Assembly (NCBI GenBank): GCA_040143965.1
Contig: JASJQH010000084.1
Span: 1-32,271, forward strand
DNA length: 32,271 nucleotides
From: Basidiobolus ranarum
Taxonomy: Eukaryota
Direction: 5' to 3'
In this document: positions 5,107 through 11,570 of the stretch, piece by piece
Numbering within the stretch: position 1 is the stretch's first letter
Layout: each line of letters begins with the position of its first letter
Notes under the pieces: model-generated
Database searches by the model: none
What the model saw: the letters and a program-made list of their open reading frames with translations, nothing else
Told to the model about the DNA's origin: nothing
Position numbers and translations under genes: made by a program

Positions 5107-8171
<3,065 letters not shown>

Positions 8172-8590
8172 TTTGAGCGTAGAAAATAGTCACTAGTTTC
8201 GTACTTCTGTAACACTCGTTTTAATTGATGAATAAATAAGTTGATGAAATTAGTGCCTTGTAATAAAATTTCCAATCTAATTTCAAGTGAGCATTCAACT
8301 TGGCTTAAGTTGGTTGGTGAAAGCATTTATAAATACAGTTCACAGTACTCAGGTTTTCTACAACACATGAATATTACGCTACGTTTGTACATTACTTCTT
8401 ACACATTCTTTGCTATGAAAAGACTTCCGATATCTTCTGATTGATCATTATTATATATATCAAGTATGAGAGCAAAAATATTTGAGTAAGTTTGAATTAT
8501 ATTAATTTATTATATTATATATACAGTTATGAACACCAGGAACACTAAAGTGAAATTAATGGTTAATACCAGATTATAATGATAATAACA

Positions 8591-8674
8591 GACTCCTCAG
8601 AAAAAGACATTCGACATATTTTTGATTGTAGGTCAAAATCCGTCCGCCCGTCTACATTTATCCTCAGCGGAGTC
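8591..8674 (-). ncRNA. snR70: Box C/D snoRNA, snR70/U43-like; predicted guide for the 18S Cm1639 equivalent (E. coli C1402)
   Basis: 6-bp terminal stem GACTCC/GGAGTC, variant C box CTGAGGA, and guide GACGGGCGG complementary to the universal 18S CCGCCCGUC, followed by variant D' box CGGA. D box CTGA at 8600-8597. The +5 rule hits the C after CCG. Confidence 0.88.
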
Positions 8675-8821
8675 ACACTTTGTGTTAAAGAAAAGTTGCT
8701 TACATTATGTACATAGATTCCTTGGTCAGTTCATCAGCTCTTCGTTTCGAATATAAATTCTAGAATTATGATATAATGGTAAGTATCGGGTTTACAAGAA
8801 AAATATAAACATAGCAATTTG

Positions 8822-8910
8822 CTAACTCAGACAAGGCTGAAACAAAATATTATTGATTTAATCCACATGGGGTTTTCAGTGGAATAGGTCAATATTGTCA
8901 TCACAGAGAA
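8822..8910 (-). ncRNA. snR41: Box C/D snoRNA, snR41-like; predicted guide for the 18S Gm1126 equivalent (yeast numbering)
   Basis: C box GTGATGA (8904-8898), D' CTGA (8879-8876), D CTGA (8830-8827). The guide GTTTCAGCCTTG is complementary over 12 nt to 18S CAAGGCUGAAAC, and the D+5 rule lands on the first G. Confidence 0.88.
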
Positions 8911-9464
8911 GCTAATATAAAAATCAAGAAATATTCAAGTTACTTACCAAGAGCTCATTGGAGGTGAGAAAGAGAGTATGGATCAGTAAAGAAGACTCTC
9001 TCACTTTATACTAGAAATTTCTTTTTTTTCAGCCCTCTAGTAATGGGTAGATTGGGTAAGCATGGGTCAGCCATTCACGTGAATCTGATTCTATTGGATG
9101 TCATGAACATGGCTTCGATTTGTGATTCTATGGGTGAACTCAACGCCTATTGATCCCTAGTCGTTCAAGTTGGACAAAAAGTTAAGTGAGAAATGTTTAG
9201 CGCAGATTTGGTCAAAAAAATTAAATAAATCTCAAATGCATTTTGCTTAAGTGTACTTCTATAACTGTAATCCAATAATATCCTGGGAGCATACCGTAAT
9301 AGGCCAATCATACAGTATTCCAAGTCAGCTCCAATGTAAATATGTGGCTGAGTGCCTGACATCACCATCACCTACACCTTTAGCATTTCGAGAGAGAAAG
9401 GAAAAATGAGTGTATATAAGAGTTAGAAGAATGGTTAGTATCTCATCAAATTCTCCCTAAAAAT

Positions 9465-9755
9465 ATGATTTTCTCAACTTCACTTCGCATCTGCTGTATA
9501 TCTGCTCTGATTATTCTGAGTTCTATCCAAGCACAATCTACAGATCCGGCACCACCTGGAAGTGACTGTCGTAAATCTGGCTGCGGCTTGGGTGCGAAAT
9601 GTATGAAAGGGAAGAACAAGAAATGGACTTGTCAAGGGATTGGAGCTCCTGTAGACTGTCGCCAAACTGGTTGCCCTCAGGGAAATGTTTGTTTGGGGAT
9701 TGAAGAATGCTTTGAATCATACTGCATTCAAAAATGGCAGTGTCATCGCCCTTAG
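9465..9755 (+). CDS. Small secreted cysteine-rich protein (96 aa) with two internal repeats
   Basis: Signal-peptide-like N-terminus; 10 Cys in the mature part; repeats DCRKSGCGLGAKC...KWTC and DCRQTGCPQGNVC...KWQC; TATATAAG at about 9413; AATAAA at about 9802. Confidence 0.85.
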   Translation: MIFSTSLRICCISALIILSSIQAQSTDPAPPGSDCRKSGCGLGAKCMKGKNKKWTCQGIGAPVDCRQTGCPQGNVCLGIEECFESYCIQKWQCHRP

Positions 9756-10331: not shown

Positions 10332-11570
10332 ATGTCCAACCAAGCTATTCAATCTATTAGAGAACATCAAGCTAAGCGCACTTTGTGCATGATTCCTGGT
10401 ATGTCCTCTGATACTTTTCTGTTATTGCTTCGAAACTAATGAAAATATTCTGCTTTAGGTCCTATTGAATTCCACGAGCATGTTCTTGAAGCCATGACTG
10501 TCGGTGCTACTTCTCACGTTGATCCTGGATTCATTAATATTTTCGGTGAGACCATTGAGATGGTTCGTAAGATTGTATTCTCCAAGGATGCTCAACCTTT
10601 CATTGTTGCTGGTTCCGGTACTCTTGGCTGGGATATGGTTGCCACCAATCTCGTCGAATCTGGCGAAAATGTTCTTGTTATCACCAACGGCTACTTCGGT
10701 GACAAATTCGGTCTCTGCCTTCAGAACTATGGTGCCAATGTTACCTTCCTTCCTTCCGACACCCCAGGAAACCGCCCTAGCATCCAAGCTATTGAACAAG
10801 AGCTTTCCAAGAAGAAATACAAGTTGGTCACTGTTACCCACGTTGATACCTCCACTGGTGTCTTGGCCGATATTGCTAACATTGGTCGCTTAGTCCGTCA
10901 AAAGTCCCCTGAAACATTAGTTGTTGTTGACGGTGTCTGCTCTGTTGGTTGTGAGGAAATTAGATTCGATGACTTCGGTTTAGATATTGTCTTGACTGGA
11001 TCCCAAAAGGCTCTCGGTGCCCCTCCTGGTTTATCCATTGTCGTTGCATCTCAACGTGCCATTCAAGTTTACAACAACCGTAAATCCCTTCCCGCTAGTT
11101 ACTACGCTGGCTGGAACCGTTGGATCCCTATTATGCAAGGATATGAATCTCGCAAGCCAACATACTTCGCCACCCCTGCCGTTCAACTTGTCATGGCCTT
11201 GAACGTTAGTTTGAAACAATTATTGGCTTATGGTGTTGAGAATAACTTCGCCAAGCATCGTGAAGTTAGTGATAGTGTCAAGAATACCCTCGAGAGCTGG
11301 GGTCTCAAACTTGTCCCCGTTTCCCGCGATGTTGCCGCCCATGCTATGACTGCCGTCTACTACCCCGAAGGTGTTCAAGTTACCGACTTGCTTCCTAAGA
11401 TGGCTGCCCAAGGAATCACCATTGCTGGTGGTCTTCACCCAACCATCGCTGCCAAATACTTCCGTATTGGTCACATGGGTATCTCCGTCACCCAACCTGA
11501 ACGTGGACACATCCAGAAGGTTCTCAGCGGTGTTCAAGCATCTCTTCGTCAATGTGGTTACAAGTGCTAG
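10332..11570 (+). CDS. AGX1: Alanine-glyoxylate / serine-pyruvate aminotransferase (class V PLP enzyme), intron 10399-10458
   Basis: LCMIPG^PIEF, AGSGTLGWD, THVDTSTGV, VDGVCSVG, GSQKALGAPPG (PLP lysine), YFATP, FRIGHMG; strong codon bias. Confidence 0.94.

Follow-up and report, generated by a model that had tools for sequence, protein, structure and literature searches.

A gap of 1.3 kb in the genome of Basidiobolus ranarum, flanked by a plus-strand Cys-rich ORF (from approximately position 9420) and a minus-strand gene for a DEAH helicase (ATG at 8171-8169), raises the question of whether it contains a gene of its own. A preliminary description had proposed that it hides a non-coding host gene, with an snR41-like guide in one intron and an snR70-like guide in the other. 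We examined this proposal in the window, the whole stretch of 32,271 nt in which the gap lies. The locus presents the boxes and guides of two box C/D snoRNAs, with their register, a terminal stem, splice-site motifs, a lack of ORFs and an order of snoRNAs common with other fungi (Table 1). The reading that we favour, and consider rather likely, is that of a spliced non-coding host on the minus strand that releases two C/D snoRNAs, a two-member form, in the Basidiobolus lineage, of the snR41-snR70(-snR51) cluster.

Table 1. Features of the putative snoRNA host unit and of its downstream neighbour (positions are those of the window)
Feature	Position	Strand	Basis or remarks
Candidate TATA box of the host unit (TATAAA)	9005..9010	−	Sequence motif; function presumed
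Predicted exon 1	8948..8985	−	Pyrimidine-rich, holds ATG; 8985 is a guess, placed some 25 nt downstream of the TATA box
Predicted intron 1 (188 nt)	8760..8947	−	GTAAGT 5′ site, CUUAC branch-like site, TAG 3′ site
snoRNA 1 (snR41-II/Afu_455/Nc CD9 type)	8822..8910	−	Rfam match below gathering and 13-bp guide pairing
snoRNA 1 boxes	C box 8903-8898; D′ CUGA 8879-8876; D box CUGA 8830-8827	−	Sequence
snoRNA 1 D guide	8843-8831	−	GUUUCAGCCUUGU, adjoins the D box
Predicted exon 2 (56 nt)	8704..8759	−	Between splice-site motifs
Predicted intron 2 (159 nt)	8545..8703	−	GTAAGC 5′ site, UUAAC branch-like site, TAG 3′ site
snoRNA 2 (84 nt, putative functional equivalent of snR70)	8591..8674	−	Stem, boxes, guide, position
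snoRNA 2 terminal stem (6 bp, GACUCC/GGAGUC)	8674-8669 with 8596-8591	−	Fold and box-and-stem scan
snoRNA 2 boxes	C box CUGAGGA 8667-8661; D′ CGGA 8642-8639; D box CUGA 8600-8597	−	Sequence
snoRNA 2 antisense element	8652-8644	−	GACGGGCGG, then A and CGGA; 9 nt after the C box
Predicted exon 3	8490..8544	−	Candidate AATAAA at 8511-8506; 3′ end approximate
Start codon of the DHX35-like DEAH helicase (MSFWKK...)	8169..8171	−	Downstream of the host unit, same strand

The TATA box, the introns of 188 and 159 nt, the polyA signal and the ATG frame of three codons reported in the preliminary description were all present on the minus strand at the positions given here. The ATG of the host, at 8958-8956, runs into a stop when 8948 is joined to 8759 (ATG AGC TCT TG/A, giving the peptide MSS), and the longest ATG-started ORF in the spliced predicted exons has 17 codons, in agreement with the non-coding host proposed earlier. 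The two snoRNA introns are clearly long for the region, as had also been stated: chaining of the exons of the helicase gene yielded 15 introns of 42-95 nt with a median of 54 nt, in a rough procedure carried out without a homologue, in which some junctions are certainly wrong. The stretch from the TATA box to the 5′ splice site (9004-8949) is 66% pyrimidine, as compared with 49% for the strand, and this composition is the basis of the putative 5′TOP-like start of the preliminary description. Control through 5′TOP elements is a vertebrate finding, and in a 5′TOP gene the transcript begins with a C and continues in pyrimidines without a break.

Both snoRNAs have a GTAAG 30-37 nt above them and a TAG 44-62 nt below them, and the branch-like sites of both introns are found 19-21 nt from the TAG. 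Only 2.6% of minus-strand positions have a GTAAG 25-45 nt upstream, yet both snoRNAs do. This spacing bears on the possibility that the snoRNAs are cut and trimmed by endonucleases and exonucleases, as in S. cerevisiae, from an unspliced polycistronic or independently transcribed precursor, with the splice motifs being leftovers or the product of chance. According to the text of PMC3596301, which cites Mitrovich et al. 2010 (its reference 15) for intron loss in yeasts, S. cerevisiae and species close to it do make the same cluster in an unspliced primary transcript, after the loss of splicing signals. Here, however, both units keep the strong GTAAG, the branch-like site and a typical spacing, the rare distance to GTAAG occurs twice, and the lineage is intron-rich, judging from the approximately 15 introns of the neighbouring gene (a rough count). 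We regard an unspliced precursor as most improbable and continue with the spliced host.

The branch-site regions of the two host introns (8790-8762 and 8572-8547, minus strand) are alike (GATACTTACCATTAT and GGTATTAACCATTAA, respectively) and are closer to each other than to the branch regions deduced for the helicase introns, a likeness for which an old tandem duplication or a shared constraint are possible origins. Predicted exon 2 contains CUGAUGAACUGA at 8737-8726 (minus strand), in which a D-box-like motif comes right after a C-box-like one; this is too short for a snoRNA and probably a product of chance.

Whether the unit is a gene in its own right depends on its relationship with the helicase gene, for which the snoRNA introns might form part of a long 5′ untranslated leader. 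In that case a protein-coding gene would be the host, and a separate non-coding gene would not exist. The two lie on the same strand, predicted exon 3 starts 373 nt above the helicase ATG at 8171, and the candidate AATAAA is weak evidence at the 38% G+C of the window. However, a transcript extended to the helicase ATG would hold nine upstream ATGs, one of which opens an ORF that crosses the helicase start in a different frame, and a TATA-like TATTTATAAA at approximately 8335 on the minus strand could serve the helicase gene on its own. In addition, the cluster sits in non-coding hosts in other fungi, as described in the text of PMC3596301. Because of the nine upstream ATGs in the extended leader, the TATA-like element available to the helicase gene itself and the lack of a long ORF, a separate non-coding host is favoured, and we consider a helicase leader unlikely.

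Judging from one 127-aa exon, DHX35 is a reasonable label for the helicase gene: human DHX35 was the best named solved relative (E 1.5e-42), and only an unnamed 672-aa 'RNA helicase' outscored it. Between the host unit and the helicase start, a stretch of approximately 47 nt that runs from GTAAGA to TGTTGTAG (8396-8350, minus strand) could be a small intron of the helicase leader, and a stop-to-stop frame of 77 codons in which ATG comes first (8326-8093) passes over the helicase start out of frame.

On the other side of the gap, a small Cys-rich ORF on the plus strand (9465-9755), with a signal-peptide-like start (MIFSTSLRICCISALIILSSIQA...), is divergent from the snoRNA host, and the approximately 450 nt from its ATG to the TATA box of the host are common to both. 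An intron-free ORF of 375 aa for an alanine-glyoxylate aminotransferase (10443-11570, plus strand) has its closest match, at 95% identity, in a protein of Basidiobolus meristosporus CBS 931.73; its next matches are two more B. meristosporus paralogues (72% and 65%), and other species, mostly Mucoromycota and Glomeromycotina, come to approximately 60%. By these matches the window belongs to Basidiobolus or to a very near relative.

We scanned the window against Rfam, which gave no match at gathering thresholds, and the only match at E<=0.05 in the whole window was Afu_455 at 8825-8908, that is, at snoRNA 1. In the local scan, snoRNA 1 reached 38 bits against Afu_455 (RF01860; E 1.4e-4, gathering 48) and 31 bits against snR41 (RF01218; E 2.9e-3, gathering 50), in alignments that include the C box and the CAUGUGGA block. 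Its D guide, GUUUCAGCCUUGU, and its D box are identical to the consensus sequences of both families. The search against snR41 suggested in the preliminary description thus returned matches with an identical guide, although with scores below gathering. The C box (GUGAUGA, with TGATGA at 8903-8898) agrees with RUGAUGA. No terminal stem of at least 4 bp was found for snoRNA 1 in a box-and-stem scan; at its ends, the stem columns of the Rfam snR41 model are mismatched, and folding gave weak outer pairing only. The 17-mer formed by D guide and D box occurs once in the 32-kb window and in none of 100 shuffles.

Guide targets were sought in foreign rDNA, namely that of eukaryotic contaminants in prokaryote assemblies, fetched by a published 18S primer pattern. 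The scan returned at least 40 loci, and nine longer ones were examined for guide pairing. As an observation in itself, the eukaryotic 18S primer site is present in at least 40 contigs that are assigned to species representatives of bacteria or archaea, and several of these contigs contain whole 18S-ITS-25S units.

The D guide of snoRNA 1 formed 13 bp, including one G-U, with GCAAGGCTGAAAC of the 18S rRNA in 8 of the 9 foreign loci. The fifth nucleotide from the D box pairs with a G at approximately 1129-1131, counted from the NS1 primer site, within CAA[G]GCUGAAAC, which is the equivalent of yeast Gm1126. The exact D guide and the 13-bp pairing at this site bear out the identification of the first snoRNA as an snR41-type guide. 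A second guide of the kind found in S. cerevisiae snR41, directed at Am541, was considered and rejected, as snoRNA 1 has no complementarity to the Am541 site, and its D′ guide had no convincing target in the foreign rRNAs. By these features snoRNA 1 is of the split, Gm1126-only snR41 type. Such a division is found in Neurospora, where, in the table of PMC2780460, CD9 is an intron-encoded snoRNA that directs 18S-Gm1122 through a D guide and is a homologue of snR41 and S. pombe snR41-II, while the Am538 guide is on a separate snoRNA, CD13. With Afu_455, CD9 and S. pombe snR41-II, snoRNA 1 has in common the identical D guide and D box, the CAUGUGGA block, a length of approximately 85-90 nt and an intronic location; it is set apart by a different and shorter region from C box to D′, and its Afu_455 score of 38 bits compares with a gathering value of 48.

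The second snoRNA is less conventional. Its C box departs from RUGAUGA at position 1, with C for R, and at position 5, with G, but keeps both GA pairs. Its D′ box, CGGA, departs from CUGA at position 2, and the GA dinucleotides of both boxes are intact. Its guide formed nine Watson-Crick pairs with CCGCCCGTC of the 18S rRNA in all nine foreign rDNA loci, the only match of this guide free of G-U pairs. With the D′ box at 8642-8639, the fifth nucleotide is the C right after ACACCG, within ACACCG[C]CCGUC. From the position of the universal 1392-1406 primer site, we take this C to be E. coli C1402. Cm1402 of E. coli is listed as the equivalent of yeast Cm1639 (snR70, helix 44), human Cm1703 and Arabidopsis Cm1641 in a table of PMC2794176, and the snR70 family is described in PMC5824354 as acting through a D′ antisense element.

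The D′ box was picked between two overlapping copies of CGGA after the target had been seen, a choice backed only by the alignment with metagenomic loci described below. The 10-mer ACGGGCGGAC, which contains the guide core, had a single occurrence in the 32-kb window, and none of 100 shuffles contained it. Since the 17-mer of snoRNA 1 and ACGGGCGGAC are unique and absent from the shuffles, and since the spacing to GTAAG is rare (2.6%), both snoRNAs are beyond what chance would produce.

The covariance models of snR70 and SNORD43 did not match snoRNA 2 at E<=10, even when a stretch of 116 nt was searched alone, so that the search of these models named in the preliminary description came out negative. 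Other Rfam C/D families matched it at chance level (snoZ182, 17.9 bits; snoU36a, 16 bits; snoR77Y, 15.9 bits) and were rejected. Its D guide had no convincing target in the foreign rRNAs; the best pairing of the second guides of both snoRNAs was one of 9 bp with TGGAATAGG in a single foreign 18S, and we classify both second guides as orphan. The claim that the second snoRNA is snR70-like is supported in its predicted function and place, through the Cm1639 target reached by a D′ guide and the position in the cluster, and fails in the comparison with covariance models and with the profile described below. Judged by predicted target and position, snoRNA 2 corresponds to snR70 in function and in place, and descent of the two from a common gene, which sequence does not show, is likely.

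To relate the locus to other fungi, we scanned metagenomes with a pattern that joins CATGTGGA, across a gap, to the D guide and D box of snoRNA 1. The scan returned 10 loci, 7 of them distinct, with a G+C content of 44-50%. In Rfam searches of seven loci, Afu_455 was found at 87-98 bits in all seven, Afu_294 in five and snR51 in two, and because these three families are found there we assign the metagenomic loci to cluster III of the Pezizomycotina type. In all 10 loci, ACGGGCGG was located on the strand of the snR41-like D box and 119-156 nt downstream of it; no locus had it upstream. A C box of the form AUGA(A/U/C)GA precedes it by 12 nt, and the letters after it are A (G in one locus) and then CAGA or CAUA. 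The window has this core 175 nt downstream; there it stands 9 nt after the C box, and A and then CGGA come next. Thus, snoRNA 2 shares the core ACGGGCGG-A-C(A/G)GA and its position with the middle snoRNAs of 10 out of 10 metagenomic loci. Since these loci show the same order, the same core and the same spacing to a non-consensus D′ box, they support the choice of the D′ box at 8642-8639.

These homologues also bear on the possibility that snoRNA 2 is a decaying or inactive copy, with the active Cm1639 guide located elsewhere in the genome. The non-consensus C and D′ boxes, the guide pairing of only 9 bp and the missing covariance-model match speak for such a copy. However, the terminal stem of snoRNA 2 (6 bp) and the GA dinucleotides in each of the two boxes are intact, and its oddities recur in the metagenomic homologues: position 5 of their C box, at which snoRNA 2 also departs, is variable (A, U or C), their D′ boxes (CAGA, CAUA) are non-consensus, and their guide core is 8 nt long. 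Because the homologues show them too, the short duplex and the unusual boxes are best seen as traits of the family, and we consider a decayed copy very unlikely.

Beyond its core, snoRNA 2 has little in common with the metagenomic middle snoRNAs. A profile built from six full-length ones (stretches of 133-139 nt, including 6 nt of flank on each side) missed it, placing it at 2 bits and E 5, at rank 12 of 19, and ACGGGCGGAC is the only core that they have in common. The middle snoRNAs of the seven Pezizomycotina-like loci received no snR70 or SNORD43 label from Rfam at gathering thresholds either, and their D guides had no clear target.

In several metagenomic loci (L042, at approximately 370-385, and also L041, L043, L044, L045 and L048), the snR41 intron has its 3′ site (..CAG or ..TAG) right against GTAC or GTAT, which leaves an exon of almost zero length between this intron and the next, and in metagenomic cluster III loci a nested intron separates snR51 from its D box. 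Both the near-zero exon and the nested intron in snR51 are described in PMC3596301.

A third member of the cluster was searched for in several ways. snR51 had no match in the Rfam scans of the locus and of the whole window, and two guide motifs of snR51, derived from the metagenomic loci and searched with up to two mismatches, had two and zero matches in the window, which is at chance level and far from the locus. Overall, no relatives of snR51, U45 or U55/Afu_294 were found in the 32-kb window. The box-and-stem scan of 9420-8100 returned snoRNA 2 alone, in a procedure that stemless snoRNAs such as snoRNA 1 escape. A plus-strand match to snoMe28S-Cm2645 at 8406-8466 (19.8 bits, E 0.37) was taken as chance. 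The earlier remark that a recognisable snR51 is lacking is thus confirmed by Rfam and guide-motif searches within the 32-kb window, and snR51 may lie elsewhere in the genome.

The arrangement itself has been described. The text of PMC3596301 reports that cluster III, snR41-snR70-snR51, is intronic in Euascomycetes, Basidiomycota and Rhizopus oryzae, with host RNAs that 'lack long open reading frames', and Neurospora snoRNA hosts are called UHG-like and compared to gas5 in PMC2780460. What had been presented as a hidden arrangement is therefore already known from these two sources, in which intronic snR41-snR70-snR51 clusters occur in non-coding, GAS5-like fungal hosts. As in fungal cluster III, an snR41-type snoRNA is followed on the same strand by a Cm1639 guide, with one snoRNA in each predicted intron, short exons and no long ORF; in contrast to the three members of that cluster, only two are present here, and snR51 is missing from the window. 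Basidiobolus is not among the cluster III species named in the text of PMC3596301, the figures and supplements of which may list further early-diverging species. With the vertebrate hosts GAS5 and UHG/SNHG1, the unit has in common one snoRNA per predicted intron and a spliced RNA without a real ORF, but there is no relation in sequence.

Among the snoRNAs themselves, the difference between snoRNA 1 and S. cerevisiae snR41 is the lack of an Am541 guide. Like snR70 (RF01238) and SNORD43 (RF00221), which Rfam groups in clan CL00059, snoRNA 2 is directed at the Cm1639/Cm1703 site by a D′ antisense element, and like snR70 it is placed after an snR41-type snoRNA; it differs from both families in the missing covariance-model match, the C box CUGAGGA and the D′ box CGGA. 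It is also compact, with 84 nt as compared with 133-139 nt (flanks included) in the Pezizomycotina-like metagenomic homologues, and is nearer in size to plant and animal U43 than to the ascomycete snR70 of 130-160 nt. From this, one could suppose that a two-member cluster with a compact guide of 84 nt is the ancestral state of cluster III, kept in an early-diverging lineage, and that snR51 and the growth of an insert in snR70 came later. We consider this reading, under which the pyrimidine-rich leader could also place growth-linked control of snoRNA hosts before animals, quite unlikely.

For the separate spliced host, we infer a course from transcription and splicing to processing and methylation, apart from the DHX35-like gene, as follows. 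RNA polymerase II would make a short minus-strand transcript, from approximately 8985 to approximately 8490, which would be spliced at the two introns. Each intron would free one box C/D snoRNA by debranching and subsequent exonucleolytic trimming, while the spliced exons would be a disposable non-coding carrier. The guide adjacent to the D box of snoRNA 1 would then bring fibrillarin/Nop1 to the G of 18S that corresponds to Gm1126 of yeast, and the D′-adjacent guide of snoRNA 2 would target for methylation the C in helix 44 that corresponds to Cm1639 of yeast and C1402 of E. coli, a nucleotide of the P-site part of the decoding centre.

Taken together, the locus is an ordinary and correctly read example of a published intron-encoded fungal cluster, and it leaves the understanding of snoRNA hosts unchanged. 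It is of mild interest in that its Cm1639 guide is compact (84 nt) and has non-consensus boxes, and in that the cluster has two members. The Rfam model of snR70 has no reach beyond yeasts, and under protein-based annotation the locus would stay empty. The fungal snoRNAome survey PMC5824354 does not mention 'Basidiobolus' anywhere in its main text. For the Basidiobolus lineage, two snoRNA genes and a likely non-coding host are added, and the linkage between the Gm1126 and Cm1639 guides is extended to this lineage.
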